Notes: a model not told the origin generated them from the letters alone. DNA of 64,000 bases from Protoeuglena noctilucae (GCA_958009085.1 OY253670.1:930001-994000); one strand, 5' to 3'; shown: positions 1,799-64,000, counted from the stretch's first letter. Made by a program: numbers and translations.

Positions 1799-2810
1799 AT
1801 GGAGGTCATCGACTCTCTCGCAGCCGCAACGCTCCTCTCGGGGGTGAGATGGCGACGGACAGGCCCTGTGCGACATCTGCGACACGACCCGCGACCGCGT
1901 TGGCCCTGAGCACTGCTGTACCTCCTGGATTGCAGGACGAATCGAACGTAGCGATTTTCGATGCAAAGGCGATCAGCGAGCTGTCGCCGGAGCGCCAGGG
2001 GCCCCTCGCGGGCGTCGTGCAGGCCATGGCACGGATGTCGCAGCTTGCGCAGGCGAGGCGGGGCGAGGCGGAGGCGCAAACTGCTCGCATTGCGTGAAAC
2101 AGATAATAGAGATCAACTTCCGCCATCACGTCCGATCGCAGGGCCTCTCGGCGCCCGTGACGGACCTGCACCGTGTCCGGCTTCACGGGCACGTGCTGTT
2201 CGTCGCGGCGGAGCGCCGGGCAGGGGGCGGGGTCGTCGTACAGGGCATCCTCAAGTCCGGGCGCAAGCGGCTGTTCTTGCAGGACCGCCGCGGCGCATTC
2301 ATCGAGGCCGAGCCCTGCTGCGTGCTCGATTTCTACGTCCACGAGTCGTGCCAGCGCCGGGGGGTCGGTCGCCGCCTCTTTGAGCGCCTCCTCTCGCGCG
2401 AGGGGCGCCGTCCGCACGAGTTTGCCTACGACCGGCCCTCCGAAAAGCTCCTGGCTTTTCTCTGCAAGCACTACGGCCTCGTGCGCCCGCTCGTCCAGGC
2501 CAACCACTTCGTCATCTACCCCGGATTCCACCCCTCGGACAGCCCTGCAAGGGAGATCACCGCGGGCCGCCGGGCGGGGCGCGCCCCGCCCCCCAGCGTC
2601 GACACAGCGCTGGCCCAAGCGTTGTTAGGGTCCCACCCGTCCCGGAGTAGAGCCCAGGCTCCATGGGGCGAAAGCCGCGCGGGCGCCGGGGGCCACGTGC
2701 ATGTCGTGACCGTTCGCCCGCCCTGGGGGGTGGAGGGCGACGAGGTGCCGGGCCGGTCCGGGCCGCCGCGCGCGGGCGGGCGGGGGCCGTACTGGCTCGG
2801 CGCTCACTAG
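1799..2810 (+). CDS. ATAT1: Alpha-tubulin N-acetyltransferase (ATAT1/MEC-17)
   Basis: GILKSGRKRLFL, CVLDFYVHESCQRRGVGRRLF and AYDRPSEKLLAFLCKHYGL are ATAT1 hallmarks. SQLAQ|GLSAPVT is joined by GC-AG intron 2053-2141. The ATG at 1799 is inferred. Confidence 0.9.
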
Positions 2811-2849
2811 TGATAGACGGACGGCGCGCTAGACACCTTTTCACAGCCA

Positions 2850-4769
2850 CTACCCACTACCACTTTCAACCTCGTCTCCATTGTCTCCACCGTCGCTGTC
2901 GTCGACGGTCCACGGCGTGCCGAGCTCGGCCGTCAGCACCCGCGCCTCTAATGCCACAAGCGCCGCATGCACAGCCGCGGGGCCGACGCCAAGCACTTGC
3001 GAGAAGGCCGCGGTGACGCACACGTAGTCCCACGCGGGCCCCCGCAGCGGCTCTTTAATGACTGGATGGAGCGCCAGCCCCACGACCACACCCCACTTGC
3101 CCCTTGCCGCCACATACTCCCCCAGCGGCGCAGGCCGCAGGCCCGGGATCCTCCCGCGCGGCCGAGGCCGGGGGATGAAGGGGCGCGCCTCGCCGGCCCC
3201 CCAGCGCGGCGCCATGCGCACCAGCGACACCTCGGGAGGAGGCGCCTCGGGAGCGCCGTCCTCGGAACCCACCGCAGCCCGCAGGGCATTGGCCACGAGC
3301 TCTCCGCGCGCGGCAGGAGGCGCAGATCCCACGACGCTCGCGGTGATCCGCGACCCCCGCGCGGTCCAGGGAGGTGGGGCCCGCGCTGGCATCGCCTCCT
3401 CGTGAGCCCGGGCCATGGCACGTGCCCAGCGGACCCAGCTCGCAGGCGGCGCCAGGAGAACGTCCCCGCCATCTGCCGGGTTGCGCACCTCCCGCACCCC
3501 GCTGCCGTCGCTCCCGCCGGCCGCCGGGTGTGCCTTGGCCCATCCGCCCGGTGACACGGCTCCGAGCAGACAGGAGAGCTTGAGGACCGCGAGCAGCGCA
3601 GCCGCGAGGCCCACCGCGGGGTGCGTCGGCGAGGACGGATCGAGGTTGGCGGGCGCCCCGTGCAGCGCGACCAGGGCCTCTGCCGCCCGGGCGGCCCCCG
3701 CCGGCAGCGCGAGCCGCGCGCACAGCATCCGCAGCATCCACCCGGGTTCCACGGGCGGGGGCCGCACGCCGGCGACTTGCGCCACGGCCAGCGCCAGCGC
3801 GTGGACTCGGTCGCGTGACGCCGAGGCCCACCCGGGCACCCGGGCTGCCAGGAACGACGGAGGCAGGCCCCGCGCCTCCGCGAGTGGGGCCGTCGCCCTC
3901 GCCGAAAGCGCCTCGAAGAAAGGCACGGCGCCCGACCGCGCCCACCACTCGAGGTCGGCCGGGAGCGGGGCGCGGCCCCGGTCTGCACAGGCGACGTAGA
4001 GCACCGCCAGCGGGAGCGATAGGCTGGCGATGCGACAGCAACCCTGGGAGAGGCGCCGGACGGTCTTCAGGTCCGGCTTTTCCAAATAACCGGCCGCCTC
4101 CTGCAGCTCCTGGACGCTCGCGTCGGCCAGAACCCGAGACTTGGCGACCCACGAGGCCCAAACGCGTCGACACGCCTCCTTCAGCCCCAAATCGCCGCCC
4201 TCCCCCGCCCCCTCCAGCGCCTCCGCACAGACTTCGAGACACCTTTGCAGGGAGAGCAGGTGCGCTGCGAGGGCGACCCGCGCGTCGACCGGCACGAGAG
4301 AAGGGCCTTCAACTTTTCGCTTCTTCACGTGGTACGCCCGCCGGCGAAAGCGCGTTCCCGCGGCGCCCTCATCAAACTCATCCTCCTCCTCCTCCGCGCC
4401 AGCGGCCTGGGCGCGGAAAGGAAACAAAAGGGAGCCTGAGCGGCATGGGCTGGAGAAGCGCGTGCTTCGAAGCCCAACTTGGGCGAAAGCGCGCGGCACC
4501 TGCGACTGCGTCCCGCAGTTGGCACAGAAGAGGGTTCCCGACTCTTCCATGAATTCATCCGCATGGCATAGAGCGCACCGCGGGCCGAGTTCCTGCAGCG
4601 GGAAAAGCCCGGCTTCCTTCGATGATGGCCGCGCTGCGACATCGGGTAGCTAGCCAAATGGAATAGCATGCTTCCTGCGCTCGCAAGCGAGGCGGACCTC
4701 TTCCTGTGTCTGGCTCGGGAGTGTCTGGGACAGGCGCCCGAACAAGCCCGGCCGTGCGGCCCCAGCCAT
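2850..4769 (-). CDS. RNA polymerase I TBP-associated factor TAF1B/Rrn7-like protein
   Basis: N-terminal zinc ribbon CALCHADEFMEESGTLFCANCGTQSQ, followed by LAVLYVAC...LPADLEWWARSGAVPF typical of the Rrn7/TAF1B cyclin fold. The first exon (ATG about 4769) is inferred from splice sites. Confidence 0.7.
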
Positions 4770-6007: not shown

Positions 6008-7193
6008 CGACCGGCAGCGGCACCCAGCCGTCGAGGTCCCCGCACTCGAGGAAGGGCACGACCGTGCGGAGGGCGCTTGATGCGTGGTCCGATGGCTCCA
6101 GGCACGATGGACCCTCCATGAGTGACTGGAGCTGGCGAGGATGGAAGTCTTCCGGGAGACACCAGTCCTGCGCAGCCCAGCGTAATGCGGCTTTGCTTTT
6201 TTGTCTATGGCTGGCTGTCGTGGATTGGCTCGTCATGCAGTTGCGCGTTTGTATGGCCCCGTGCGCACCTGGCAAACGACAAAGTGCTCGGCGGAGCCGA
6301 TTCGGGAAGAGCGAGGCTTGAAGACGTGGACCGTGCGGAAAAGGGTCTTGAGCTGGGCACAAAGCACGGTGGTGTCTGGGCCCCTGGGACCAGGGAGGCG
6401 GGGCGGAGAGTGAGCAAGCGGCGGCGGGGAAGAGCTGTGAAAGGCGCATGAAAGCGCCCAGCTCACCGGAATATCTTGGCGACGAACGTGCCCCCCCGGC
6501 GGAGCACGTGGCCCGCCACCGTGATGCCGGCGAGGATGAGCTGGTGCTGCACGTACTGATCCAGGTCGTGCACGCCCGTCACGTCCGGGGCGCCGTCCGA
6601 GACGACGAGGTCCGCGCGGCCTCCCTCGAAGCAGCTCACGACCTCGCGTGCCGTCGCCGCGCTCGTGATGTCGCCCTGGATGAGGTGCACGCCCTCCACG
6701 GGCGCCATGGGCTGCAGGTCCACGGCCACCAGTCGCGGGATTTCCTCCGGCGGAAGGCCCTGCGGGACATGCCTGGGCACGGGGCCTGAAAAGACGGACG
6801 TATGCTGGCAAGGGGCGTATCGTGTCATCCAGCGATGGCGTGGAGACTGGAGGGACCCAAGAGAGCGTGCAGATGCAAACGCGGAACTGACCTTGTCGCG
6901 CGCCGGAAGGTAGAGCCGGCGGCTGAGGACCTGAGCCCACGACCCCGGCGCGGCGCACAAGTCCACCACGTTCCTGGCGCCCTTGAAGATGCCGAACGCA
7001 TCATCAATTTGGATGAGCTTGAACGCGCTCCTGCAGCCGTCGAATATGATCGTATTACGTCGAAAAAGCAGACTCCCTGGCTACCCTACCAATTCTTCGA
7101 CCTTCTCCAGCCTCGCCTGGCGCGCCATCCCTCCTCCTTGGCCCTCCGATAATACACGTCCCGCTTGCTGCGCTCCTCCCTTGGCATGCCCAT
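5997..7193 (-). CDS. TRM7: tRNA (cytidine32/guanosine34-2'-O)-methyltransferase TRM7/FTSJ1
   Basis: [69 protein letters not shown] and [10 protein letters not shown]. Confidence 0.92.
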
Positions 7194-7526: not shown

Positions 7527-9018
7527 ATGCAGCGGGCGGCGTTCCCTACCGCCATCCACGCACGGGACTGTACCGTGCTTCGGTCCACCCGGGGCCAGGC
7601 TTTCTCGGGGCCCCTACCCACCCGCAGGCCCCCACGCAGCGGGCGGTGGCCCGTGGCATGTCGCGCGGGTGAGGGCCGCGCGCGAGATGCCACAGGCAGC
7701 TTCCTGCGCTTCGTTTTCGCTCGCCAAAGCAACGCCGTGGGTGACCCCGCCCTGTGCGACGCGCGTTCCGCAGGGGAGGATGCGGATAGGCGCGGCGAGG
7801 CGTCGGGCCCGCTAGCGACCCTCCCGGGCGCGCGGACTGTCACCGCGGCGGAGTCTTCGGGGACGGAGGAGCGGAGCGCGGTGGAGAAGTTCTTCTTCCC
7901 GGACAAGGAGGAGCTCCCGGGCGACTTCCAGATGCCCATCTGGGATCACTTGGAGGAGCTGCGCGAGCGCGTGATTGTGGCCGCGCTGGCGTGTGGTGCG
8001 GCCATCCTCACGTGTTTCTGCTTCAGTAAGGACCTCGTCGTCTTCCTCGAGGCCCCCGTCATGGAGAAGGGCGTGCGCTTCCTGCAGCTGTCGCCGGGCG
8101 AGTTCTTCTTCACGACCATCAAGGCGAGGATCGCGCGGCGGGCGGCCGCGGACCTCCTCGCGTCTCTCAATGCACCCACTGACCCCGCGAGCGGATCCCC
8201 CGGCCCGCAGGTGGCGGGGTACGCAGGGCTACTCCTCTCTGTCCCGACGGTGCTGTACGAGATCATCGCGTACGTCGTGCCGGGGCTGACGAGGGACGAG
8301 CGCAAGTTTCTCGGACCCGTCGTCCTCGGCTCCACCTTTCTGTTCATCCTCGGCCTCTTCTTCTCCTACCAGGTGACCAGTTCGCGCACGCTCGGATCGA
8401 CAGGGCGACCCTCACCGTGCGCCGTGGCCCGCGCTGACCCGCACCACCCTCCGCCGCCGCGATGGCGCAGGTCCTCGCCCCCGCTGCGCTCAACTTCTTC
8501 ATCTCCTTTGCTGATGGGGCCGTGGAGTCCCTCTGGTCCATCGACCAGTACTTCGACTTCGTCCTCCTGCTCATGCTCTCCACCGGTGACACGCGCCCAC
8601 GCTGCAGCTCGTCGAGTCTCTGCCCTTCGCGGCTCTGTGGGTGGGCGATGGCGCCTTGCCCTCTGCGCACACCGTCACACTCTCCTGGCGCTCGCAGGGC
8701 TGTCCTTCCAGGTGCCTGTCATTCAACTCATGCTCGGGCAGCTGCGTATCGTCACTGCGGACCAAATGTTCTCGCAGTGGCGCTTCGTCGTCGTGGGCGC
8801 CACCATCGCGGCAGCAGGTGCGTGGCGCTAAATGCGGGGCCTTGGCGGGACGACAGTTTTGTGAGCGGACTCGCGATGTGTCAATGACCACATCCGCAGT
8901 GTTGACCCCCTCGACGGACCCCTTTACCCAAAGCCTGCTGGCCGCCCCGCTCATCGGGCTGTACATGGGCGGCGCGGCGGCCGTGAAGGCCATCGAGCAG
9001 GCTCGGGGGTCGGCCTAG
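7527..9018 (+). CDS. tatC: Chloroplast twin-arginine translocase subunit TatC (cpTatC)
   Basis: [48 protein letters not shown] and VLTPSTDPF. Five introns; transit peptide starts about 7527. Confidence 0.95.
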
Positions 9019-10150: not shown

Positions 10151-12646
10151 ATGGTGGACCAGCGGGGGACGGCCGGCCCCCCGGGCGGCATAGGCGGGTT
10201 CTGCGCTGTGATGCTCTGCGCCGGGACGCTCAGTGTCGTTTTCTCGAAGCTTCAAGACGTCGTTAGCGTGGGACAGGACGAGAACGGGAACCCGGTCACG
10301 TTCAAGCACCCCATCCTTCAGTCGGGCTTCATGGCGAGTCGCGGGGAGCCGCACCCGCCTCGAGCGTCGCACTTGCGTGGGCGCCCGCGCCCTCCCGCAT
10401 CGGACTCGGCCCCGTTCTGGCTCCCTGCAGTTCATGGGAGAGTTTCTGTGCATTATTTACCTAGCAGCTGGCCGGGCGTGGGCAGGGTCGTGCCAGCACC
10501 CGGGTGGCGCGAGGGGGTACGCAGCAGACCGATGGGACGACGTCAGAGAGCTCCTGGGTGGCATAACCTCCAAGATACCGTTCTTAGGGGGGGGTTCTCA
10601 GGTGCGTCTACCGCGCACTATGCGCACTATGGGCTGCGTGGCTCGTCCTTGCTGTGCCCTGCCGCACTGGGGCGTGCACTGCGAGGTCGCTGTCGCGCCG
10701 CAGCGGTCTACGCTGGGGTACCTGGAGGACGGCTGGGGCGCGGGGGCCCGCTCGGCTCTCTTGGGGGGCGAGGGAGAGGGTGCCGACGATGAGGGAAGCC
10801 CCAGGGGCGAGGACGAGGCAGGCGACGTGACGAGCTATCAAATTCTATCGCCGGGGGGCTCGACCGCGTCCGCACGCCGCCGCCAGAAGAGTTTTCTTGG
10901 GAAAATCGACCACCGGCTCGTCTTCGCGCTGCCGGCTGCCTGCGACATGACCGCCTCCGCCATGCTCAACCTAGGTTTGTTCTACACCTACACGTCCGTC
11001 TACCAGATGCTCCGGGGCACCCTCGTCATCTTCACAGGCAAGGAAGTCTTGGGTGATGTCCGGGGTGGCAGGGAGGGGTGCGGTGGCAGGGAGGGATGCG
11101 GCGGCACGGTGACTCATGCCACGGTGGGATGGTGCCTGGCACTGTGACTAATAGCATGCCCGTTGCGGCGGACGCAGGCCTCTTCACGGTCATGCTCCTC
11201 AAGCGGAGGCTCTTCGCGCACCACTGGACCGGCCTGGGTCTCATCTGCACAGGCGCCGTAATCGTTGGACTCTCTTCGACCATGCACATGCACCACGGCC
11301 CGGCCCCACCGGCGCCCTCGCCGACTCCCCAGCCTACCATGCCCCCTACGCCAGCGCCGACGCCCCAGCCGACTACGCCCCCTACGCCAGCTCCCACTGA
11401 GCTGCCAACTCCCAGCCCGACCAACGAGCCAACCCCCAGCCCCACCGAGCAGCCGACTCCGAGCCCCACCAACCTGCCGACTCCCAGCCCCACAGAGCTG
11501 CCGACTCCTGCTCCGACGTCGTGGCCCCCTGCGCCCGAGCCCACGCCGGAGCTGCCGACCCCAGAGCCCAGCACGCCAGGCCTCGCAGTCGGCTTTGATG
11601 TCGCGGCGTTCCATCTCCTGACGGCGGAGGAGGCTTTCGCAGCGCTGAGGCCCGAGTCGGTCGCATCGTCAAATGCCCGAGCGTCGGGTGGTTTTGCGGG
11701 AATTGGACAGCTCCTGGGTGGCTTGGGCATCGGCCCAGGTCGAGGTGGCAACCGCCCAGACGTGGCGCCGGCCCCAGCCCTTGGCGACATCCTCGTGGTG
11801 ATTTCACAGGTACGGTGGTGGTTTTTTGGTCGATTGCAATTTGGCTGACTGCCAGTACAATTCCACTCGTCACCCGCAATTGCCGCACCCGGGCTTCCCG
11901 CGCTGCTGCGACAACGGAACGCTCGCCCCCCCTGGCCGTCACCTGCAGACCATCCAGGCGTTGCAAGTCGTGCTGGAGGAGTTCCTGCTCTCCAAGCACG
12001 CCGCAGTGCAGCCTGCCGAGGCCGTCGGCCTTGAGGGAGCGTGGGGACTCTTTTACGTCTGCCTGTTGGGTGTCTTGATGGCCTGCCTCCCGCGGCAGTC
12101 TCAGGTGACATACAAGGGAGCGCAGATGCCAGTTGCACAGGCAACGGTGGCGTGAAATGGATGAAGCATGAAGCCGTGCCTGCGCGCTTGCAGATCGACA
12201 ACGTGGCAGAGGGCGTCGCGGAGGTGTTCCAGCACCCGAGCCTCCTGCTGTCCGGGGTGGCGACCGTCCTGGCCATCGCGCTGTTCAATTGGGCCGGCAT
12301 GACCATCACGCGGCGCGTGTCGGGGGCCACGCGAGCCACGGTCGACGCCTGCCGCACCGCCATCGTGTGGCTCGTCTCCATGGCCCTCGGGTGGGAGCAG
12401 TTCCACGTCCTGCAGCTACTGGGCTTCACGGTTCTGTTAACCGGCACCGCCGTGTACAACGAGCTCATCACATACGCTATGGTTACGAGGCGTCTCCAAC
12501 CCAGCAGTCGGGAGGGAGATGCGGCGGAGTCGGGGGACGCCGGTGCCGAGGCGGTGCCGCCCGGCGTCACGCCCATCCCCGCTGCCGGGAGGCTGTGGGC
12601 GCCCCTAGCAAGTGCATTAGCGTGGCTGCCTAAGATGGGCCGTTGA
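10151..12646 (+). CDS. SLC35F6-like drug/metabolite (nucleotide-sugar) transporter with a Pro/Thr-repeat insertion
   Basis: [65 protein letters not shown] and GTAVYNE. Confidence 0.85.
11300..11577 (+). repeat. Coding Pro/Thr tandem repeat (PTPSPTE/NL-type, 24-nt period) inside the SLC35F6-like gene
   Basis: The translation [68 protein letters not shown] is directly visible. Confidence 0.9.
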
Positions 12647-13025: not shown

Positions 13026-16000
13026 ATGCCGAGCCCGCTTCTCGTCGCGAGCTCCGCCCAGGTGAGCCGTGCACGGGCCGTCTGCTTCCCCCGCTCGCAC
13101 GCGACGACGCGACCGTCGTCCGCCCGGCCTGCTTCTGTAACCATGAGAGCCGGCTCCGCCTCGCGTGGGGTTGCTGGTTTTCCAGGCCTCCCGGCGCGCC
13201 GAGGCCACCGTGACAACGCGTCCCATTTCGCAAAGGCTCTCTCGACGCAGGGGACGCCTTCCCAGGACAGGAGGGCGCTCTCCACCATAACCAACTCCCC
13301 TCGTCCGGACTCGAGCCGTTCGCGCAAAGTCCCCGACTCGCCGGGTTCCGCCACGCCATCCGACTGCGCCCCACCTCCGGGCCTCGCCTCGCCCTCGCTT
13401 CAGGACCTGGTCACTCCGCGGCGCGCGCCCGCGATCGCTTCCGGCAAGTCGAACTCCGCCACGCCCCACGCGCGCCGCGCGTCCCGGGCCCCCACGCTCT
13501 CACACTCCGCGGAGCACGACGTCGCATTTGGCGGCCAGAGCTACCAGGAGCTGCAGGAGCTGCGCGCCCAGTACAGGTGCTAGCCCTGGCTGCGATGTGG
13601 CTGTTTTGGTTTCCAAATACTTTGTGGATGGTCCCCGGCGCACCCTCAGCGAGCCTGCCTTGCAAGCGCGCAGGAAGAAGGTGGAGGATGCGTATGAGAT
13701 TGTGAGGAAGCTCTGCACCGCGACCCTGTCCGGGCCGACGAGCCCGACGCTGTCCGCGGACCAAGGGCACCCGGGCCAGGGCGCCTCTGTCACTGAGGAC
13801 TCGCAGAGCGTGGCGGAGCTGAGAGCGCGATGCGACGCGCTCGCGCTGCGCAACCAAGAGCTGGAGTCGCTGCTGGCGGCAGCCGAGGGTCCTAAGCAGG
13901 CGCAGTCAACCCACGGGTGAGTCTGGCTGTGCGCCGCAAGCATGCAGGCGGCACCAACAACGAGCTGCGCTGCTGAGCTGCAACCCTGCCCACAACTCTC
14001 TCGCCCGCCTGCCCCTCCGCAGCTCGCCTCTTGCGTCATGCGTCCCTGTCCAGGCCGACGCAACGCCAGAGCCGCCGGCAAAGGGTAACGACCCCACGTG
14101 CGTCGATAGCAGCGACGTGGCAACGGGTCCCTGGGGGTTCTCCGCAGCCCCAACGCAGACCCCGCCGCGATGGCTGATGGACAACCCGCTCTATGTCACG
14201 CCGTCGATCCGGGGGCATGGGTGCTCCCCAGCACTCGAGCCATCCCATGCGGACGGGTGGGAGAGCCCCGTCACCTTCGTGTTGCCACACATGGACGACG
14301 ACTCAGACGCCGACACCCCCGGGGCTGCGGTCGACAGCGGCGTTGCGGCGCAGGGGGCGGGCGAACGTCCCACCACTGCGTTGGAGGTGCCTCGCTGCGA
14401 TGCGATTCGCAACCTACGTGCGATATGCGACGCTGCCTGTGTTGCCTGCATTGCCCATGCATACCTGAGTGGCAAGAGCTCTTTCTGGCCCCGCGTAGGT
14501 GACCCGACCCTCGTGCCGACCGTCGTGCCGTCTCGCGTTTCGCCCGCAGTGCCTGGGGACGTGTGCAACGGCTGAGGGTCTGGCCAGGGAGCTGGAGGAG
14601 CTCCGGGCGCGCGTCGCAGAGACGGACGCGGCGTTGCACGAGGCGCGGAACCGGGCGGAGCAGCTGAGTTCCGAGGCGGCGGCGATGCGGGGCGAGAGGG
14701 ACATGGCTAGGGAGCTGTGGGAGCGGGCGGAGGAGGGCTCTGGGCGCGCTCTGGCCGAAGCAGAGCAGCGAGCGCATGAGGCTGAGGGCAGGGCTTCGCG
14801 GGCGGAGGCCAGGGCGGCTGCTGCGGAGGCCTGCGTGCGTGAGATGGAGGCTGTGCGAGCGGGCGCGGGGCGGGCGGACGGGGGTGCACCGACGGCGCTG
14901 GACGTGCTGAGCGCCGTGGCGGCAGGAGGGGACGACGGCGAGGGTCTGTCAGCTGCAGAGCTGCGGAGGGCATTGGCGGAGAAAGAGACGCTGGTGGCGA
15001 CCCTTTTGTCCCAGAGCAAGCACCGCCAGCAGGTCATCAACAGCCTCAAGGTGGAGCTGGAGAAGGAGAAGTCGGCCGCGGAGGTGGGCATCCGGGAGGC
15101 GCTGCGGCTGGCCGAGGCGGCGGCCAAGGCCCACAAGCGCCAGACCAAATGCGTGGGTCTGTTGGAGGAGCGGCTGGCGATGGTGGAGGAGGAGGTGAGG
15201 CGAACGGGGGTGGGGCAGACACATGAGGGGTCAAGAGGGATGGGGGCTATGTGCCTGGGAACTGAGCTGCTGATTCCACCATGTTCGCGTTCCGCCTGAT
15301 CTCGCAGAGGGAGGTGGTCACCATGCAACTGGAGCGCGCCATATGCCGGGACATCGACCTATGCCGGGAGGTGGCGTCCCTGGAGGGTTGCGTCGCCCAC
15401 CTCATCGCCAGTCACGCGTGTCAGATGGCCGTGGCGAGGGACCACCTGCGGCAGGTGGCGGCGGCCCCGGACTGTGTTGAGGGCTCGGGTCCGCTCGTTT
15501 CCGAGGCTGCGCGGCGGGCGTGGGCCATCCGAGAGGCCGAGTTGCGGGAGGAGATAGACGAAGCAGCAGCGACCATCAGGTGCGGGTCAAAACTGCTCAG
15601 GGCGACAGACACGCAAACATGGGCCGGTTCCGCTGCGCAGGTGAGGCTCGATAACAGCCGCCGTCGCCGCGTGCCATGCGCCGCCGTGCCGCCCACAGGC
15701 GCCTCGAAGCGGACCTGGCTGCCCGTCTGGCGGAGACGTGCGCGCGGGACGCGACCCTCGCGTCGATGGCCCAAGAGCTCGAGGCGCGACAAGTGATGTC
15801 GGAGCATGCCGACCGCGTCATCGCAGCCCTGGAGGGCCGTGCTGGGGAAGCGGAGGCCGAGTGCGAGCGGCTGCGTGGGGAAGCTGCCGATGCCGAGGCG
15901 TGCTGCCGGGCACTCGAGTCGCGGCTGGCGGAGGCGGAGGGGCCCGAGCTGGTGAGTCACGCTCTGGCGCAGGGCCGGCGCGACGCGCCGCAGCTGTCGT

Positions 16001-48279: not shown

Positions 48280-48679
48280 GCAGACGTCACAGCATCGGCT
48301 AATGCATTGGACCCCGGCAGCGAGCAGAAACGAGTCGTTCCGCGAGCACGGTGGGTGGCGATGGATGCAAGCGCGGCTGCCCCACGTATTCGACGAACTT
48401 TATACACATAAGTCGCAGCCTCCAAGAACACACGCCCCAACTGCCTCTTCTCACCGAGAGCATTTCTTTCTCCGCGCGGGGCGCAGGTGCCGCCCTGTGA
48501 CTTGCTGTCCACGTCGTTCTTGTCGCGATGGCGGAGGTGCGGGCTTCATAGACACAGGCGACGTGGAACGTCACGCCAGAAGCAACCCGAGCGCGAGTGC
48601 ATGCGATGCGGCCCCTATCCGCTGAGCAGAGACGGCAACGCCCAACGAGTGAAGTGCGGAGGTGATGCCCCGCGAAGAA

Positions 48680-50419: not shown

Positions 50420-52870
<2,451 letters not shown>

Positions 52871-53445
52871 CGCTGAATCGCTACGAAACCTGGCGGGCTC
52901 TGCCCCACCCACGCAGGGGGTCCCAGCACAGCTATGCGCTAGCCGCAAGTCGAATCCTCCCTGATGAAGCACGTTCATGACGCGCCTTTCATTCTCAGGG
53001 TCTAGGCCGGGCCAATCCGCTGGCCAAGCGTCGCGCGGCCCCGAGGCCCTGCCCACGGGTTCGCGGGCCCCTCACCTCCGGCACGTAGCCGGGTCCCAGG
53101 GGAGAGGGCCCGGATCCCGTTATTTTCCGTATCCAGTTTTGGACGCCCGCTTTATCGGCCGCCATGGCGCCCCTCCGCGGACCGGCCGCGGGCTAGCACG
53201 CGTGCCCTTCCTGCCACCTGGCAGACGTGACCGATGGCGCAATCGTCTCTCTCTCACGACGCTCGCGAAGCAGACGTGCATTCTACTCGTGGCTGTCCGT
53301 GGGATCGGATTTTGGGGCTTCCCCTGCCGGGCTGGGGCTGCCCTGGCAGGTCAAATGACTCGATGATGTCCGGCGCTGTCCGCTGAGAGATTTGGAAATC
53401 ACTAGTGTGTCGACACTAAGATCTCTAGTTTGGAAACCTATGGGG

Positions 53446-56400
53446 CTATCTAATTCTCCAGTCAGGCCAAGGACCGCCCAGCGTGGCCGGCTGCATGGAC
53501 GGCCCATCTCGAGCCGTGGCTTCGCCGCCCTCCCTATGCCAGCCCAGCGGCCGCTCCTCCTCGCCCCCGCCCGTGACCCCGCCCGTGGCAACGTGCGCGA
53601 AGTCCAGGACCGCCTGTGCCACGGACCCCGTCGCGCCCGGCTCGAACCGGGCACTCCGCATGAACCTGCCCAGCACCGGGGCCAGGCCGCTGACGACCGA
53701 GTCGAGCACGTGCTCACGCGCATCGTCCCAGCCGTCAGCCTTGCCCAGAGCCCGAATGGCTGCCATGCCATCCGGGGCCAGTCGCTGCGCCATCGCCTGC
53801 CGGGCGCCCTGGGACCGGGAAGAGAGGGATGCTTGGGATTGCATGAAACTCGATCATCCAGGCAAACAGCGCAAAGCACCCGCTGTGCACCTCCATGCCG
53901 CACCTGCCCCACGGCCCACCGCTGCCGGGGCGGCCCGCACGCCTCCCCCTCCCACGCGGCCCGCTCCCAATCCGGCGACCCAGTCGGCCACGCCTCCCTC
54001 TCTGGCAGCATCCGAGCCACGAGGGCCACCTCCCGCGCACCCGCACATGCGTCCGACTCGACCCCGGGGCACCCCACCGATGCGAGGAGCGCGGCCACGT
54101 CCTTGTCCAGCGCCGTGAAGATGGGGACGAGTCGCCCCGGCGGCACGAAGTACTCCAGCAGGGGCACCTGGGGTATGACCCTGCCGTTGCCAGCAGATGA
54201 GGATGACAGGATCAGCGCCTTTGCTCCAAGCTGCTCCGCCCGCACTGCCATCGACACCGCAGTGCACAGAGGCGGCCCGACTCCCACTGCGAGGACGGCC
54301 GCTCCGAGGAAGGGCGACGAGGCGCCTGGCGGAACGGAGCCCACGACGCCTGATGCACGTGCGCCTTGAGAGCGACGTGCGGTGCTCCCAGGTCGTGATG
54401 TCTCTGCCGTGCCGCTGCTCGGGCCATCACCAAGCACCCCGCGGCACAACGTGGCTTCCACCACCAAGAGGAGAGGCGCGGTGAGGGCCGGGGCGACCTC
54501 AGGCTCCGCCTCGTCGCCTGCAGCAGCAGGGACGCTTAGAACAGGCAGTGAGTCTCAGCCATCCAGCGGCGCGGCCCACCTCAACGTCACAGTCAAGAGC
54601 TCGCAGGCTCACCCTGGCACCACCCGTCGCGCTTAGCACCCGCCGCCATTTGTCTGGCCACCCAAGCCGCGCCCTCGCAACCGCACATCGAGTGCCCCCA
54701 CCGCACGTTGTCCGCTTCATCCTGCTGCCCAGCCTCGCCTCGACCCTCGCCCGCCTCTCCCTCACCCCTTCCGCTGTCCCCGCCCGCGCCTGACCTCAGC
54801 AGCGCCAGGCTGTCCCATAGATCCGCCTCCGCCCAGTCGAACCAGCTCCATGCCGCCTCGTGCCACCGCACGCACCCCTTGCTTCCCGAAACGTCGCACC
54901 AGGGCCGGCGGAGGTGCTGGTGGGCGGGGCGACCCTGTCTCTCACAAACGCCGCCGCCTGCGCCCCGAGCAGCCCCGTCTCTTAACGTCCAGGGATCTCT
55001 CTTGCCCCGCCATGGTCGATTGGACGTGGCCTGGCCCGCGCCCCTGCCACGGCTTCTTGAAGGGTCGAAGTACCTCCTGCCGTTGAGCTGGGAAGGCACG
55101 GTCGGCATCCGTGACGCCACGCACCCTTGGGCAGTAGAGACGTCGAGCGTCCACATCGGCGTCTCCGAGACGGACATGACCATTTGCACCCCGACCCACG
55201 GGCCCAGTGGCATCTGCGCCAGCCAGCCCTCGTCAGAGGGGGTCGCCTGCGAGTGCGAGCATGCCAACACCTTGCAATTGTTAGGAAGATGGCGCTCACA
55301 AATGCGAAACCTAGCAGTAAGAGTGGTGTCTCCTCACGTGGGGATCGAGAGGGAAATGCACCAGGTCTCGGCACACGGGCTGCTTGGACTCCGGGGAGTG
55401 GACGTTGCGGCCGAGGAGGCAAGCGAACCGCGCCAGCACCTGCGGGATCGACAGCAATAGAGAGCATTTGTCGGACGCTGCATGGACCGCGCTTACTCAC
55501 ACCAGCCATGCAACACTGGTGCGACTGGTGAGGGTGGCGGTTGTTGTAAGTGCGGGACAACATGTGACACCACACCTCTTGTCGGGTCTTGTGCATGGAG
55601 TCGAGCAGCTCTCGGGCCCCCAGCTGCGACGCCGGCCCGGACGCCATCGCCTCGTAAAGGTCCGATGGCGACTCCTCATGCAGCTGTTCCGCCAGTAGCG
55701 ACAGGCCCTCCCCGCCGCGCATGGTCTGCAACGCTGCGGAGGATGCCAAGCACGCCCGGCACCGGCGGCGTCTGCGCAGCACAGGGGAGGTGACAAGAGT
55801 CATCAGGGCACATGGAGCAACCAGCGATATCAATGCTATGTGAGGCGCTTGAGCGACTTCGCGATGCCTTTGGCGCAGCCCGTGTATGGATGACACCTGA
55901 TCAGGGCCGCGTCCCGTGCATCCAGCCCCAGGTGAGGGAAGACGTGCTGCAGCCCCTCCACCGCTTCCCGCATCGCTTCGCTTGGCTCGTCGTCGTCGCC
56001 CAGCGTCGCCCCGCAAATCCCCGCACACGTCTTATCTTGCCACTCGCAGCCCAAGGCGCCCTCTCGCGCCACCCCGGGCTCTGCGTGCATTTGCACCGCC
56101 TCCCAGCCCAGGCGACCGACAGACGTTGCGATACGGTCCAGGCTGGCTGGGATAAAGGGCAGACTGTCACCCCAGGGCCGCATATCGGGGCAGCTGTCCG
56201 AGACAGCAGGTACGCAGGGTGGAACGCTGGGGTTCCCCGTGAAACGCAAAGCGTCCCGGTCCTGCGACACCGTGGGGCACATGAGGCGACAAGTGAGCTG
56301 AGAATGTGAGAGGGAGTTGCGAGCAGAGATTGCGTTCCCATGTCACGTGGCTCTCCTTTGCAGCCCGTCGCGCATGCGTTGGCGTCACCTGGGCGGGCTG

Positions 56401-58747
56401 CACGGGGAGCGGGTGGCCCTCCGTGCTCATGACAAACGCGTCCGCCATGCCCCGGGCGCCCTTCAGCAGAAGGTACGGGTACATGACGGTCTCGGATAGG
56501 AAATACGACTCGGCCTTGTCCTCCAATCGGAACGCCTCACCGGCGACATCGACGACGCTGGCAAAGCCACACGGGCCGCGCAGCTTGGTCAGGACCAGCG
56601 CCATCGTCTCCCGAGCCTGCATGAAGCAAGGGACGACGCGAGCACGATGGATGTCGAAAGATGCCAGCCACTAAGTGCCGACCTGGTCTGCACCCCTGCA
56701 GCCACCTTCGCCGGTCGCGACCCACAACCCTTCAGAGGCTGGTTGGGTTCACTCGCCACCCACCTGCTCCACGAATTGGTAATCTCCCGTGGCTTCGAAC
56801 AGCGCCCAGGCAGACTCGAGCATTTCCGGCCGCAGCGGCCAGCCCCTCATCACCGGGTGGACCCACCCGCCCCCCGCATGCCACTCCTCACTCAGCAGGC
56901 CCCCGCTCCGGGCAGCCTGCCGCGTGAAAGCCTCGTGCATCCTCCGCGCCTGCTCCTCGTGGCCCAGCGTCGCAGCCATGCCCGGCCAGAATGCCGCCAG
57001 GCTGCTGACCCAGCTCTTCGCGAGGACTCCTGCGAGAGCCAACTGCTAGAGCCGTCTCTGGCACGCCCTCAACGATGGAAGACCCACTGTCCGAGAGCAA
57101 TGCTGCCAGTACACACAGCGACGGCGCACCCCGTGCACCTGTGTAGATGTCCACATCCAGCAGCCACGCGTCGCTGGACATCTCCAGCAGTTGGCTGTGG
57201 ATGTCTCCGTGGAAAAAGACCGCAGACGCGTACGCCTCGGCAAAGGCAGCCAGGAGCTCCTCGTACCCAAACATCAAGTACCCTGCGCGCGATCGACCTC
57301 TGGGGCCTATCTCATTGTGTTTGTTCCCGGGGACGCTGCTCGAGCTTAACTCTAAGCCCAACAACATCCCAGAGGCCCCGCCAATCCCCGTGCTCGCCTT
57401 TCAGCAGGTACTCGTAGAAACTGTCCGACATGGCGCCCACGGTGGCCATGTCACGCGTCCACCGGCCGTCGTACACGTCCGCCATCGTGCCGTAGAGACC
57501 GAGGGGCGAGCGCATGGACACCAGCGCCGCCACTGACGCCAGGGCAGCCTCCTCGAAGCGCGGGTCCCCTGACAGACGCGACAGGAGGCCCATCTCTAGG
57601 ACAAAGGTGCCGGCTGTGGCTGCGGGCATCAAGGGACGCTGCCGCCTCACTCTGCCTTGTGCAACGATGAGCGACAGCCTCAGGCGTCAAGTCACCAACA
57701 CCCACTGCCGGGGTTGGGAGTCGACGACCGCTTGGCCCCGATGCAAAGCGCACCCGTGTTGGTCTCCCAGTCTCGCAGGTCCCTGCTCCACGTCCGCATG
57801 TCCACGTGGGCCGTGGGCAGGCCACTGGTGGTGGCGAAGGCAGGCAAGAGGCGCAGGCCGACCTCCACGGCCTTGCCCAGCAGACAGCCGTCGTAGGGGC
57901 GTCGTAGGTCAGGTCCCGGGGTCGGCCCGACGTCTGATGTGGCTGCACACGACCACACGGCGGGCGGCGGCGGTGAACCGACCTCTGTCCCAAGAAACCA
58001 CTCCACGGACGGCACCCCGCCTGGACCATCGGCACCGAACCCTCGCCGTTCCCTCACGTCGCCGCACGCGCTCCCCGCCTGCCCACACCGCGCCCACTGG
58101 GTGGAAGTCAGGCGCTTCACTTGTTCGACGGGCACGGCCACGAAAGCGGGGCACCTCTCCAGAAGCGCATGCGCCGAGAGGAGGCCCCCAAGCACGCGGA
58201 TGTTGACCTCGAACGCGTTCGCAGTGCCGACGGTCGCCGGGGCGAGGCTGTCGCAGACCCACTCCACGGCTGCGGCCGTGCGTGTGCGGTCGCCCATCAG
58301 AACCAACGTGCTGCGGGCACGGAGGGTAGGCTGCCAGGGTCATCGCAGCTGTCGTGCGCTTGCAGACCGTGTCGCCGGGCAGGGAATTGGCGTCACCTGA
58401 GAGCATCGACTGCCGTGGACGACAGGCCCCCAAACTCGTCGTAGCCCGAGCAGGAGAGGGGCTTCAGGCTGTCGTGGGGCGCAGCAACGCGCATGTACGC
58501 ATCGAACTGTGCGGCTGCCATACTGACAAGGTGCTCCGGCGCAATGCGGCGACTGCGGGCGGAAGCAGGGCAAGTTGTCGCCCCCGCAGCGGCGAAACAC
58601 TCTATGAATTTGTCATGAGACTGACCTGATGTTCTCGTCGACATCCTTGCTCGCGATTGTTGGCGAGGGGGAGGGAGAGAGAGAGGGAGGCAGGAGGGAA
58701 ACGGCGGCCAGGACCCACGTAGCGAGGCCGAGGAGCTCGAGCAACAT
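53446..58747 (-). CDS. EDEM-like GH47 alpha-1,2-mannosidase with a C-terminal PA-like region
   Basis: Signal peptide, HDSLKPLSC, VDALS|TL, FEVNIRVLGGLLSAH, DSFYEYLLK, WPLRPEMLES, ESYFLSET, STEGH and PA-like AVRAEQLGAKALIL. The 3' end is uncertain. Confidence 0.85.
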
Positions 58748-58862
58748 ACGCGTCCCCTGGCCTTACGGCCATTCACCACGCAAAGCAAAGAGTAATGATG
58801 ACCGGCTCGTGAGGGTTTTATGACCATCGGCCTCTCGGGGGTGCGGCCCCATGCCGTGCAAG

Positions 58863-59802
58863 ATGCGGCTCATCATCACGAGCAGCGGGGTGGCCAGCAG
58901 GGCCCGCCCCTCACACCCCACGCTCTCCCGTCGCGGCATGTGCGGCTATCGCCAAGTTGCACTCGTTTGCTCGTTTGTGCCGCAGTCGTTTCTTGCATGT
59001 CTGATGCGAGACACCTCGACTGGCCGCGAACACTCGATCCTGCGTCCATCTCATCGGCTGTGGATCACATCGGTTCCAACCGACGATGTCTCTGCGTGTC
59101 GCCGCGGCGCGCCCGAGCGCGCTGGGCCACAGGCGAGCGACGCGCGACCCCAACCCTCTCGTGTGGAGGTGGTGCACTGTCGTTAGGCTGGCGAACCTGT
59201 GGCGCGCGTCCTCGCGACCGCGCGGGACGAGGAGCGGCTCTGCAACCCTTCCCGTGGTGCCTGCAGGAGCCCGGCGACAGCGCCGCGTCCTGGCCATCAC
59301 GCCGCCCGGAGGTGTCCTCTGAGGACGCATGGAGGCCGGAAAGGGGTGTTGAATCCTGTGCGCGCGATCGAGATCGACTGGTCGGACCCGGACACCTGGA
59401 TTGGTGCCGGGGGCGCCATCTTGGGCCTCGCGATGGGTATCGGCGCTCCCATCCTGTACATGAAGGCGGCAGGTGATTGAGAATCGCCGTTTTTGCTCGC
59501 CTGCCCTGCGCGGGAATGCAGAGCGCAGCGGTCGTCAGGCACCCGCACCGAGTGCGCGCAGAGCGGGACGAGGAGCGCCTGGAGGAGCTCCGGGAGCTCA
59601 ACAGGGCGACCAAGGAAGCGACGGGGGAGTACATGTCGGAGGTGGGAGCCTACGCGCGCATGGGCTCGTGCAACATGGTGGGAACACTTCCCGTGCTGGA
59701 CCATTTCACTTCTTGTGCTCCCTTTGTGTGGCACAGGAGGAAATCCGGGCCATCCGGGTCCCCAAGTGGACGGACCGCAGGGAGTTCGTGGATGACGACT
59801 GA
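58863..59802 (+). CDS. Small single-TM, probably thylakoid, protein of unknown function
   Basis: EIDWSDPDTWIGAGGAILGLAMGIGAPILYMKA|ERDEERLEELRELNR...|EEIRAIRVPKWTDRREFVDDD*. The start is uncertain. Confidence 0.6.
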
Positions 59803-59968
59803 GTGACTGAGGTGGTGGAACGCTGCACCTGTAGTTAGTGTACCACTCAACAAACCGGGTTCAAAATTGTGGCTGCGAATTCGTGGGGCCCATCTTCTGT
59901 GCAGCCAGGACAGAAGGCGCTAGAGCATGAGGAACGGGGTGACTGGCTGGGTGCACATTGGACGCCAT

Positions 59969-61758
59969 CTACATGCAAAGCCACCTCCGCCAGTGCCGTG
60001 GCCGAGATGCGCGACCCGATGACCGCCCTTGGCCCTCCCGGTTGAGCAGCCTGCTAAACCACTTGCGACCCTCTGCGTCGTCCCTGACGTGGGCACCACT
60101 CGCCTCGCCCACACCCGTGCTACCAGTCGCACAGGCATGTGGTTCCAGACCTAGCCCACTCGCGTGCCCACGAGGCCATGCAACCTCGCCCCTGTTGCCC
60201 CTCTCTGATTGCATAGCCAGGGGCCCCTTGCGACAGTCCCCGGGCCTCGCGCCCGCCGCTGTATTCCCGGATTGACCCATCGACGTCGTCGGCTGCGAGT
60301 GCACATCGACGCTCGTCGCCGGACCTGACGAGAGGGCCTGGGAGCGGCTGAAGCTGCCCCCGGCGCGCTTCAATGGCCCGTCTTCCTCGGAAAGCAGACC
60401 ATCTTTTGTGGATGACGCCTTGGTGCGAAGATAGAGCCGAGGCAGGATCCTGTGGTGGGGAGCGTCGCAGGTTCATTTGCGAGAAACCCCTGGGGGCGGA
60501 GTAAAGCTGCTAGGAAGAAGCGGCGCCACCGAGCCTCACGAGCTGTCGTCACGGGGTCGCGTCGCCTCTGCCCCGGTGAAGCGGTTTGGGTGCAGCTGTT
60601 GCCACAGTTCCGGACTCATGTGTTCGGTGAGCCACGGATGGTGGTAGAGCTCCAGAGCTGCGGGGGCGCAGGGGCAAGCTCGCACACTCCCATGCGCTGC
60701 TGCAGCCAGGCGGGGGGCCAGAGACGCAGGCATCGCACCTGTGGGTCTCTTGTCAGGATCAGGGGTCAGGCACGCCTTCACAAATTCCTCCGCAAGGGCA
60801 GAGTGCTTCTCCTTGATGCCCCAGCCGTCGCCGTTGTAGATGGGCGCCACGCAGTCCCGGTACGACCCCTGCCCTTTGCCACGGGAGAAGAAGCCCCGCG
60901 AGAGCAGCAGCTCAGCGGTGAGGACGCCGAATGACCACACGTCCGCTGACACGCCGTAGCCTCGGCGCAAAGAGCGAGGCACCGCCGCGCAGTCCTGCAG
61001 GGGCGCAACAGGAGGGCGATACACGGTCGGAAATGGTCGCCAGCTGGAGCACGCAGCGTGGCGAGGGTCGCCCGCGCCTCACCGTGCTGTTGAGGTCGGT
61101 GGGGTCGGTCAGGGCGACTTCCGGGGCCATGCAGCGGGAGGTGCCACAGATCGACAGGCGGCGCTGGGCCTCGCAGGCGAAGCCAAAGTCGGAGAGCTTG
61201 ACGACGCCCTCACTCGTCAGCAGCACGTTCTCGAGCTTGACGTCCCGGTGAAGCACCCCCTGGGCATGGAGCGTCGCTAGCGCCGACGCCAGGGGCCCGA
61301 CCACAGAGTTGACGAGGCTGCGTTGGCCCTGGTACAGGTCCCCGTAGCGCAACCACAGGTCCCTGCCCTCCGCCACAGGTAGGACGATGAAGGCAGAGTC
61401 TCTCGTCCGGACGAGGTCCAGCACCGGCATGACGTGTGGATGCCCCATGCATCTCGATTGCAGGCCATACTCGCGCTCTCCGGACCGGACACGCTTGAGC
61501 GCTACGTGAGCCTCGCGTACCTTGTCCCACGCCAGCCTGCGTGACGGCGCGCTTACTTTGCTTGTGCAGAAGCGGGAGCGCGATAAATCTTTGCTGAAGG
61601 TCGACAGATATGGCTGGCACGGCAAGGTTAATGAATGTCATTAAGGTCAAATGGCCTCACCAGACGGTGCCGTTTGTGCCCGTCCCGAGTGCACCAAGAC
61701 ACTCAAATTGAACCAGATGCGGATATTGCGGTGTAAAAGGGTCGCCAAGCATGGTCAT
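59969..61758 (-). CDS. Ser/Thr protein kinase (Aurora/CAMK-like)
   Basis: LGTGTNGTVW|LA, VALK, LHRDVKLENVLL, KLSDFG, CGTSRCMAPEV and ADVWSFGV. The last exon is inferred. Confidence 0.85.
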
Positions 61759-62116
61759 AAGGTGTTTAACTCTCGTCACATGAATGTGGATGCGGGGAGG
61801 CGTTGCAGGCCGCCGGCCCGTGATATGGGCTGCTGACGCGCCACACACGAATCAAGCAAACTGTCAATGTCAAGGGACCGTCGCACTGCCAGGTTCAGCG
61901 CGGAGGGGCTTGACCACGCTACGGGGGTACTGACGTGGTACTGGAGGTCTGGTTCTGGTCACGGTTGCCCAAGAAAAGGCACCTCGCCCACACTCTTCCA
62001 GGATTGGCACCACGTTCCGCTTCACAAACGCGCTGTGAGGATTTCTTGAGTTTTTGCGCAAAGTGCTTCCAGTCACGAGCGCGACACCGCGAGCTTGGGC
62101 ACGGGGAGACGTCCCG

Positions 62117-64000
62117 ATGATCGGGGCGAGGGACCTTGGACGCGTCGGCGCCAGCCCGTCGGCCCTCGCCTCGCCCGTCGGCCTGCCCGCCTGGGCAGCA
62201 GCACCCCTGCGCTGCCTGCCGGGCACAGCGCCCCGGCGATCGCGTGGGACGATGGGTACGCAGCGTAGGAAGTTGACGATACAGAAAGCCACTCCGAGTG
62301 CGCCGGGATCGGGGTACACGACCAGGGCGGAGGACTTCACCCAGGTGAGGGCCCAGGAGCCCTTCCTCGCTTCGTGCTGGCCCGGACGTTACCTGGCCCC
62401 ACCCCTTGCACTGTCCCGATCTCAACGATGCTGGCCCGCGCGGCCAAGCGCGCCGCCAACGCCCACCCGCGCGGGTCGTTCGCTGGTGTCCAGGAGCTCG
62501 CGGCTGAGGAGTCCGAGGCCGAGCGCCTGGAATCGGAGGCCCGGCAGATCCTCGCCGATCTGGCAGTGGCAGAGGAGACGGTGGAGAAGCTCGGATCCGA
62601 GCTGGACGCCCTCTTCGCCGCGGTGTTGGGAGAAACGAGTCTGGAGGGCACGGGCCTCGACGGGGACGCGCCGGGCCCGGCGTTCGCCGGAATCACCGAA
62701 GCGATGTTTACAAGTTTGGCGAGGGATCGCGCCCCTGACGCAGAGGCGCTCCTGAGGCTGTCGGAGGAGCGCGTGGGGCCGGCGCAGTGGCGGACCTTCC
62801 AAGTGAGGCACCCGCCGCGCCCTCCGTGCACGCGGCCGCCCGGCAGTCGGTCCTCCATCTCTTTTTCGACGACGCTCTTTCATCGCAGGCACAGACGCAG
62901 GACATCAAGCTCAGGAAAACCAGGGCGGAGCAGGAGGTGGCGTCGCTCCGCGGCCGCCTGGCCGACCTCAGGTGCGATGCCTGGCCGGGGCCGTCAGAGG
63001 TGACAGAGCAACCGTTTTGCACTGGAGACGTTGGCAGCTTGCGCGTCTCACCCTGTCTGCAGGCGCGCGCAGTCGGCACAGGCAGCCACGTCATCCGCAA
63101 GAGAGAGGGCCGAAGGGGCCGGGGCCGCTTCCACCGCCACGCTGGCCCCTCGTGTCGGGGACCGCGTCCGCATCGTGATGATCACGGGCTTCGAGTCGTT
63201 CAACAACGGCCTCTACCAAGACGTGGCTCGCCAGCTCTCCCTCGTCTGCCCCCAGGCAGAGCTCCTGGTCTTCAGTGACCGCGGTGAGGCCCGCAACTCA
63301 GGACGCACCACCGCTTGCTCCCTCACCGCTCCCTCACTGCTTGGCCCACTCCACTCCGCACCCTTACCCTGCAGACATCAAGGGCAGGCCGGATGCGCTG
63401 GAGCGTGCGCTGGCCAAAGCCGACGTCTTCTTCGCGTCCCTCGTCTTTGACTTTGACGAGGTCGAGTGGCTGAGGGCCCGCGTCCAGCGTGTCCCCCTGC
63501 GCTTCTGTTTCGAGAGCGCGCTGGAGCTGATGCAGGTCACGCAGGTCGGGAGCTTCGCCATGGGCGCGCCCGACCCCGGCAAGCGTAGCGGGCCGCCTCC
63601 GATCGTACGGAAGGTCCTCGGCCTCTTCGGATCCCAGGCGAGGCGGCGGGGCGATCGATCTTTATAGTAGCGGAACGCCAAGGCTTGGTTGAGAACGAAG
63701 TTGATTGAGGTTGATGAGACAGGGACCCCATGGTGACAGCGCAGCACGTTGTTGCTGCCGGCAAGCCGATGCAAACTGCCCCCTTCGCGTTGCAGAGGGA
63801 GGAGGACAAGCTCGTCGGGTACCTGTCTTTCCTCAAGATCGGCCCCAAGCTCCTCCGCTTCATCCCTGGCGGCAAGGCTCGGGACTTGCGCAACTGGTTG
63901 CAGGTGTGGCTACGGGCACGCGCGCGAGTGGTCATTGACACCAAGTGACCCAGACGGTCATGTTGACGACGTTGAATGGCTTTCCACACGCAGGTGTACG
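62117..64000 (+). CDS. Mg-chelatase subunit H-like (ChlH2/BchH-type, CobN/Mg-chelatase family); runs off the window
   Basis: RIVMITGFESFN..LY, VFSDR|DI, ADVFFASLVFDFDEVEWL, FESALELM...GSFAM and REEDKLVGYLSFLKIGPKLLRFIPG. Confidence 0.88.

Follow-up and report, generated by a model that had tools for sequence, protein, structure and literature searches.

In most eukaryotes about 1% of introns begin with GC and end with AG (GC-AG introns). The present analysis concerns introns of this kind in a 64-kb stretch of the genome of Protoeuglena noctilucae (OY253670.1:930001-994000 in assembly GCA_958009085.1; termed the window, with coordinates counted from its first nucleotide), where an earlier note made from the sequence had claimed them to be abundant. 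Across 61 species, GC-AG introns made up 1.3% of ~2.46 million introns, and the three most GC-rich of these genomes gave values of 39.6% (Aureococcus), 22.2% (Micromonas pusilla) and 7.7% (Chlorella sp.) (PMC3033335). For M. pusilla CCMP1545, van Baren et al. (2016) reported GC donors at 25.6%, with 43.5% in introner-containing and 9.7% in regular introns, and these donors were largely missing from the initial predictions (PMC4815162). In Emiliania huxleyi, 135 of 241 curated junctions were GC-AG and nine were verified by reverse transcription PCR (RT-PCR) (Feldmesser et al. 2014; PMC4028052), and the PhycoCosm paper gives ~55% for the same species (PMC7779022). The passages concerned in Pucker and Brockington (2018) name no algal GC-AG outlier (PMC6310983), and in our literature searches abundant GC-AG introns in green algae were reported only for Micromonas pusilla and Chlorella sp. 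Abundant GC-AG introns are therefore already published for GC-rich algae, having been stated as an "enigma" in 2011 (PMC3033335), and the window opens no new question.

The introns of the window have in common with U2-type GC-AG introns in general the GC..AG termini, ordinary length, exact removal and a stronger consensus over the remaining donor positions, but they make up ~10-25% of introns here against the 1.3% of the survey (PMC3033335). Micromonas pusilla CCMP1545 is likewise a marine green alga, with ~65% GC and with GC donors missed by GT-only prediction; however, 79% of its GC donors lie in introners and it has ~1 intron per gene, whereas the introns here are unique in sequence and many per gene. 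Emiliania huxleyi likewise has 65% GC, RT-PCR-confirmed GC-AG introns with AG as the acceptor, GC content blamed as the cause, and ab initio mis-prediction (PMC4028052, PMC7779022), but it is a haptophyte in which GC donors are the majority (135/241, 56%), whereas GT donors are the majority here. GC richness is also common to the window and to Aureococcus anophagefferens and Chlorella sp., which have the highest and second-highest genomic GC in the survey (PMC3033335). Chlorella sp., an intron-rich green alga with unique introns, is the closest match in gene architecture; the best named protein matches to Chlorella species are only 67-76% identical, and the window therefore represents another lineage. 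The share of GC-AG introns here looks higher than the 7.7% of Chlorella sp., a value that came from annotations of that time.

We consider, at a probability of roughly 0.8, that the GC-AG introns of the window are ordinary U2-type spliceosomal introns with a GC donor, present at the share given above, in which drift towards GC has been tolerated through compensation at the rest of the donor and for which a change in the small nuclear RNAs (snRNAs) is not needed.

Evidence for individual GC-AG introns

The window has a G+C content of 63-73% in 4-kb steps and carries ~23 protein genes on both strands, as counted from gene models and Pfam hits. The best named protein matches, with identities of 50-76%, come from green algae (Chlorella sorokiniana, Apatococcus, Bryopsis, Parachlorella, Coccomyxa, Volvox and Micromonas). 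Together with the nuclear location of the TatC gene, they point to a chlorophyte that has no close sequenced relative among these matches. A protein-atlas look-up for taxonomic placement was uninformative, giving bacterial or mixed PLP-decarboxylase clusters only. Pfam searches of the predicted exons identified a Mec-17/ATAT1 acetyltransferase, FtsJ/TRM7, TatC, a class III cyclase, an MFS transporter, an acyltransferase, a kinase with Pkinase and Pkinase_C, a glycosyl hydrolase 47 (GH47) and DUF3479, presumably the domain at the N-terminus of CobN/Mg-chelatase H proteins. The gene identities used in the earlier note agree with these matches, and the name SLC35F6 is backed by a named Chlorella sorokiniana homolog. 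The labels NDR, EDEM and GPAT9 are kept from that note; the level reached with Pfam was Pkinase plus Pkinase_C, GH47 and acyltransferase, respectively.

Gene models were generated with a generalised hidden Markov model gene finder written for the window. The only seeds of this gene finder were the MAG|GTRAGT consensus in its generic form and a rough codon bias based on G+C at third codon positions (GC3); it permits both GT and GC donors and re-estimates all parameters, including the GC-donor fraction (q), from its own predictions; the RNA joints described below were not supplied. It recovered exactly 14 of 15 RNA joints and 13 of the 14 introns that the earlier note had claimed to need a GC donor, and read through the in-frame intron in the TatC gene. 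As it merges neighbouring genes, and its introns longer than ~300 nt are false, only introns of ≤250 nt were counted. Depending on the model, 123-155 such introns were found in the window, so that the "roughly a hundred" of the earlier note was a little low; the introns are short (median ~97 nt) and many per gene.

Contigs from four marine metatranscriptome runs (X1 to X4, among which X1, X2 and X4 belong to one study) were placed on 44001-64000, and 15 of 41 joints were listed. Among sampled words of 48-58 kb, 27-49% were present in X1-X4, and all were present in four "organism A" runs. The X3 contigs were treated as DNA or pre-mRNA and excluded. When positional ambiguity was resolved for each joint, a GT..AG placement was possible for 11 of the 15 listed joints, and the other four fitted GC..AG only. 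Three of these are in the NDR-type kinase gene on the minus strand, at 50812-50923 (cag|GCGAGC), 51104-51215 (cag|GCGAGC) and 51910-52009 (cag|GCGAGG), and the fourth, absent from the earlier claim, is in a small, highly expressed gene on the plus strand, at 59133-59266 (cag|GCGAGC). Each was found in X1, X2 and X4, with no reported mismatch between contigs and window at these four joints. RNA junctions at nearby GT donors, which the earlier note had named as the finding that would speak against it, have no place here, as no GT..AG placement exists at any of the four. At a 1% background, the probability of at least four GC-AG joints among 15 is 1.2e-5. A fourth GC-AG intron of the NDR-type kinase gene (52155-52250), and those of the GH47 and Mg-chelatase H (ChlH-like) genes, lie outside the 15 listed joints, and the RNA is neutral on them.

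For five introns, the exact junction was provided by homologous proteins aligned to the window with tblastn. In the SLC35F6-like transporter gene, homologs ran gap-free across both introns on the plus strand, reading ..LQ(T/S)xxM|FxGExLC.. across 10333|10431 (intron 10334-10430, atg|GCGAGT, also predicted in all five gene-finder runs) and ..LRGTLVIF(A/T)G|L(L/F)T..LLKRRL.. across 11037|11178 (intron 11038-11177, cag|GCAAGG). In the TRM7/FtsJ tRNA methyltransferase gene (7031-7116, minus strand, cag|GCGAGG), the sequence EEGWRARSA(F/Y)KL was gap-free across 7117|7030 in five of the six homologs tried, namely the five with the N-terminus, and the FtsJ profile begins, at its position 5, with residue 1 of the downstream exon. 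In the alpha-tubulin acetyltransferase gene (2053-2141, plus strand, cag|GCGAGG, five of five gene-finder runs), residues 13-50 of the Volvox homolog P0133 match 1939-2052, with the alignment resuming at 2142 from residue 51, and position 44 of the Acetyltransf_16 profile coincides with the first residue of the downstream exon. One recorded protein alone, P0132 (238 aa; 2095-2810, plus strand), is 100% identical to this exon; as an open reading frame call in prokaryote style, with its start at a GTG within the GC-AG intron, it is not a spliced model and was set aside as evidence on splicing. In the GPAT9-like acyltransferase gene (41666-41756, minus strand, cag|GCACGG), P0254 and P0263 read ..RK(M/L)VQ|F(L/I)S.. 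gap-free across 41757|41665, and the other three of the five homologs were consistent with this junction.

Five further introns were supported by the continuity of Pfam profiles. In the nuclear TatC gene (8124-8210, plus strand, aag|GCGAGG), positions 1-61 of the profile stop at the last codon before 8124, and the match resumes with positions 63-114 from the second codon after 8210; the intervening 29 codons, an in-frame segment of 87 nt without a stop, produced no profile match. In the class III nucleotidyl cyclase gene (26569-26657, plus strand, aag|GCGAGG), Guanylate_cyc positions 3-48 precede the intron and 55-181 follow it, with six residues for the six positions in between. The fourth intron of the NDR-type kinase gene (52155-52250, minus strand, aag|GCGAGC, five of five gene-finder runs) is again in-frame and stop-free over 96 nt; Pkinase positions 2-34 extend to the exon end and 41-80 lie past the intron, and translation by read-through yields two separate Pkinase stretches. 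In the GH47 (EDEM/mannosidase-like) gene (57283-57397, minus strand, aag|GCGAGC), Glyco_hydro_47 positions 149-223 extend to the exon end, a 47-aa exon covers 224-274, and the next exon continues from 275. In the ChlH-like gene (63638-63795, plus strand, cag|GCGAGG), DUF3479 positions 47-120 and five more residues precede the intron, and 126-159 begin with residue 1 after it.

All frame-compatible G[TC]..AG pairs that preserve the aligned blocks were then enumerated. No frame-compatible GT donor was found at the cyclase intron (four options, all GC) or at the ChlH intron (seven options, all GC), and the upstream frame of the latter meets a stop at 63665. At the GH47 intron, a stop in the upstream frame (57312-57314) is reached after 85 nt of intron, and the GT options are poor. 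The segment 32124-32201 in the MFS transporter gene (minus strand, aag|GCGAGG, in-frame, 78 nt, no stop) was predicted in four of five gene-finder runs; the coding score per codon is -0.28 within it and +0.10 and +0.34 on either side, and the MFS_1 match starts right at its acceptor, so that it is probably a GC-AG intron as judged by these scores. Pfam searches of 22 short exons at E values up to 10 returned nothing useful for exon 1 of ATAT1, exon 1 of TRM7, the SLC35F6 exons, or the upstream exons of the GPAT9 and MFS genes.

Splicing at the exact GC-AG boundaries was observed in RNA for four introns, and protein homology and Pfam continuity suggest it for ten others. All 14 introns of the earlier note show a G|GC donor together with a CAG acceptor at the coordinates that it gave, and 13 have support that is independent of the donor motif (three from RNA, five from homolog junctions and five from Pfam), with the MFS intron as the probable fourteenth. 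The description of almost all donors as (C/A)AG|GCGAG holds for 11 of the 14, the exceptions being ATG|GCGAGT (10334), CAG|GCAAGG (11038) and CAG|GCACGG (41756).

A run in which GC donors were forbidden and all other trained parameters were kept mis-modelled all 15 supported loci, as the earlier note had anticipated for GT-only predictors. The errors included cryptic GT donors that add or delete residues (e.g., 50812-51043 instead of 50812-50923), read-through of in-frame introns, one skipped exon, truncation of a gene, and loss of the segment with 51910-52009 from any gene model. At all four RNA-verified sites the GT-only model conflicted with the RNA joints.

These results bear on the explanation that the GC donors are chance motif matches, the true donors being nearby GT dinucleotides or the segments being retained coding insertions. 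The motif AGGCGAG occurs 37 times on both strands of the window, a count reached by none of 100 shuffles (18.0 ± 4.0), and AGGTGAG occurs 21 times against 9.1 ± 3.0. As about half of the AGGCGAG matches, ~18, are expected by chance, the motif count alone is weak evidence, and RNA, protein homology and reading frames are therefore needed as the test. Read-through is also formally possible for the TatC, 52155-52250 and MFS introns, which are in-frame and stop-free. Against this explanation stand the RNA joints (four introns), the exact homolog junctions (five) and the lack of a GT alternative (two), and it is refuted for nine introns. The GT-only model is contradicted by RNA as described above, and Pfam profiles break off precisely where the in-frame segments begin and end, segments whose coding scores are negative. 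We regard it as hardly credible for the set as a whole.

Share of GC-AG introns in the window

Among the RNA joints listed, 4 of 15 were GC-AG (95% interval 8-55%). Gene models gave a share that depended on the treatment of q. When q was free, GC-AG introns were 23/143 from a start at 0.3, 27/145 from 0.02 and 34/139 from 0.6, and when it was fixed they were 13/123 at 0.01 and 12/155 at 0.001. Introns found in all five runs gave 9/81, those found in at least four 14/114, and those found in at least three 18/137. The runs with a fixed low q missed the RNA- or homology-proven introns 59133-59266, 11038-11177 and 41666-41756, and at 0.001 also 51104-51215; because proven introns are missed at these priors, the low-q shares are underestimates. 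A fair statement is that ~10-25% of the introns in the window are GC-AG. The claim of a rate about an order of magnitude above the usual 1% is thus borne out for the window, at tenfold or more, by the RNA joints and by the gene models from 9/81 to 34/139.

Three further segments are candidates. Two are in-frame, were predicted in five of five runs and show a drop in coding score inside: 21260-21343 (plus strand, cgg|GCGAGT), which was retained even at a GC prior of 0.001, and 29759-29842 (minus strand, cag|GCGAGT). The third, 24754-24858 (plus strand, cag|GCGAGG), was predicted in three of five runs and has an in-frame stop inside that precludes read-through. Other segments, among them 7560-7627, 27826-27885, 38053-38182 and 57943-58020, were predicted in one or two runs only, with weak signals or conflict with Pfam, and were not counted.

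Alternatively, the excess could be confined to the window, or to a few genes, without extending to the genome as a whole. Four of the nine modelled junctions of the NDR-type kinase gene are GC-AG, a hint of clustering, and 64 kb were seen in all. The supported GC introns are, however, spread over 12 different genes from 2 kb to 64 kb, and a purely local excess seems very unlikely.

Donor context, intron sequence and mechanism

The 14 supported GC donors were compared with 72 GT donors that were stable in all four runs compared. At each of the neighbouring positions except +3, GC donors matched the consensus more often: A at -2 in 13/14 GC donors vs 49/72 GT donors, G at -1 in 14/14 vs 66/72, G at +3 in 12/14 vs 69/72, A at +4 in 13/14 vs 38/72 (with C in 27), and G at +5 in 14/14 vs 55/72. 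All five positions matched in 11/14 GC donors and in 7/72 GT donors, and the number of consensus matches was greater in GC donors (Mann-Whitney p = 3.7e-6). Expressed as deviations from AG|GTGAG, with C at +2 counted as one, 11 GC donors had one, two had two and one had three, while seven GT donors had none, 48 had one, 16 had two and one had three. The four RNA-verified GC donors are all otherwise perfect, and among the ten RNA-verified GT donors reproduced by the model, eight have one deviation, one has none and one has two.

The usual donor consensus is GTAAGT, and the whole donor motif of the window appears to be GC-shifted, towards GTGAG or GTGCG. The stable GT donors (e.g., those of 46417-46517, 47552-47664 and 47813-47910 on the minus strand) are unusual in their own right, with a GTGCG class beside GTGAG. 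U12-type (minor) introns have the donor /RTATCCTT and a conserved TCCTTAAC-like branch box. No minor-class donor was present among 20 GC donors, which all read GCGAG, GCAAG or GCACG.

GC-AG and GT-AG introns are alike in length (median 98.5 and 96.5 nt, respectively) and in base composition. An all-against-all comparison of 92 introns (20 GC and 72 GT) returned a single 24-nt match in one pair and nothing else at E < 1e-3; the GC-AG introns are unique sequences and not introner copies or mobile repeats. This comparison addresses the possibility that they derive, as copies or remnants, from a proliferating introner element with a GC donor, for which there is precedent in the D-IE1 introner elements that hold most of the M. 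pusilla GC donors (the 79% given above; PMC4815162) and in the introner elements of Pelagomonas, which carry GT or GC donors (preprint). Besides the near absence of matches, the lengths of 78-158 nt show no common size and the GC-AG introns occupy varied positions in conserved genes, so that an introner origin is extremely improbable.

GC pressure is consistent with both the G+C content of the window and the GC-shifted donors, and GC pressure together with compensation appears to be the best-supported mechanism. GC-biased mutation or gene conversion would push T at +2 to C, and this C would be tolerated when all other donor positions still pair with U1 and U6. A GC donor would in this way use up the single mismatch tolerated by the spliceosome, and changes in the snRNAs would not be required.

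A different mechanism is an altered spliceosome (in the U1 5' end, the U6 ACAGAGA box, an snRNA modification, or proteins of the U1-C/Prp8 type) that recognises C at +2 like U. It would account for a GC-donor share far above that of most eukaryotes, GC content by itself fails to predict the share in other algae (M. commoda vs M. pusilla), and base modifications or proteins of the U1 small nuclear ribonucleoprotein were proposed by the authors of the survey (PMC3033335). The GC donors here nevertheless still require a near-perfect context (11/14), as unchanged U1 and U6 pairing predicts. In addition, the consensus for the U1 5' end is AUACUUACCUG, and the putative U1 5' ends of Aureococcus and two Micromonas species are reported as identical to it (PMC3033335). 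Because the U1 5' end is reported as canonical in two other GC-AG-rich algae, a compensatory U1 change would be disfavoured as a general cause. Searches for snRNA genes found no Rfam family at the gathering score in the 64-kb window. We consider an altered spliceosome unlikely.

A related and tentative idea, which we rate as doubtful though less so than an altered spliceosome, is that the spliceosome of this organism treats C at +2 as no costlier than any other single mismatch, in which case U at +2 would have lost its near-universal special status. It is suggested because most GT donors carry exactly one deviation while GC donors carry none besides +2. If it were true, the organism would be a natural system for finding the spliceosomal component that enforces U at +2.

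Comparison with related sequences was attempted by a metagenome scan with the NDR exon, which returned 80 loci. Among the 45 that were aligned, most were intronless and ~45-60% identical over the protein. No GT-to-GC switch was scorable, as the intron-bearing loci L013, L016, L017, L031 and L033 have introns elsewhere than at the four GC introns. Three of these loci, L013, L016 and L017, lie on long contigs; the NDR-type kinase that they encode shares 92% identity with residues 8-67 of the query exon, and its gene has many introns. These three belong to an intron-rich relative or another eukaryote.

Several points weigh against reading the window in terms of tolerated GC drift at a share of ~10-25%. 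The four GC joints stem from two genes, three of them from the NDR-type kinase gene, and from one study, so that the figure of 27% is loose. The gene finder merges genes and its free-prior q did not converge (0.23 vs 0.295), and the share rests on one 64-kb window. One candidate, 44828-44916, is doubtful, being contradicted by RNA or retained: record 1 of the X1 contigs extends 67 nt into the segment. The consensus comparison is partly circular, since both the earlier reader and a finder based on position weight matrices detect GC donors in perfect context more readily; in the nine RNA- or homolog-verified GC donors the context is perfect in six. Finally, GC content is not the sole cause, as Micromonas commoda, with 64% GC, has only 1.5-2.7% GC donors (PMC4815162, PMC3033335).

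Other features of the window and significance

The region at 13404-21614 (plus strand), chiefly in 17263-20149, contains very long exons of 601 and 334 aa without a Pfam match and probably encodes a large low-complexity protein. GC skew is positive there, at 0.20 in 16-20 kb, and five chance matches to AGGCGAG fall inside its long exons. Two separate class III nucleotidyl cyclase genes, at 23737-27146 (plus strand) and 37357-39656 (minus strand), lie less than 12 kb apart. In the nuclear-encoded TatC gene (7731-9000, plus strand), ~70 residues precede the Pfam domain, which would fit the plastid-targeted TatC of the green lineage.

RNA contigs reach their greatest depth in the stretch (110-152 in X1) over the small three-intron gene at 59086-59879 (plus strand). 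A poly(A) tail ends one contig at 59879, ~77 nt past the predicted stop, and no Pfam family matched the exons of this gene. Contigs from X3 (depth 3-5) run unspliced through predicted GT introns at 56655-56891, 57458-57752 and elsewhere in 44-64 kb, and this run seems to contain DNA or pre-mRNA of the source organism. Contigs from X1 are one base short relative to the window at 44560 and at 57206 (depth 3.9 at the latter), which may be due to differing strains or to one of the two assemblies being wrong by a base.

For annotation, the consequence is that GT-only or GT-favouring gene prediction will damage a large share of the genes of this genome. For the biology of GC-AG introns, the window places one more species on the short list of GC-rich algae in which they abound, namely an intron-rich green alga whose introns are unique and not of the introner type. 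This case is easier to interpret than that of Micromonas pusilla, in which introner elements are a confounding factor, and it supports the view that abundant GC-AG introns arise repeatedly under GC pressure. If a share of 10-25% holds genome-wide, no green alga would have been reported with a higher GC-AG share among regular (non-introner) introns than this organism.

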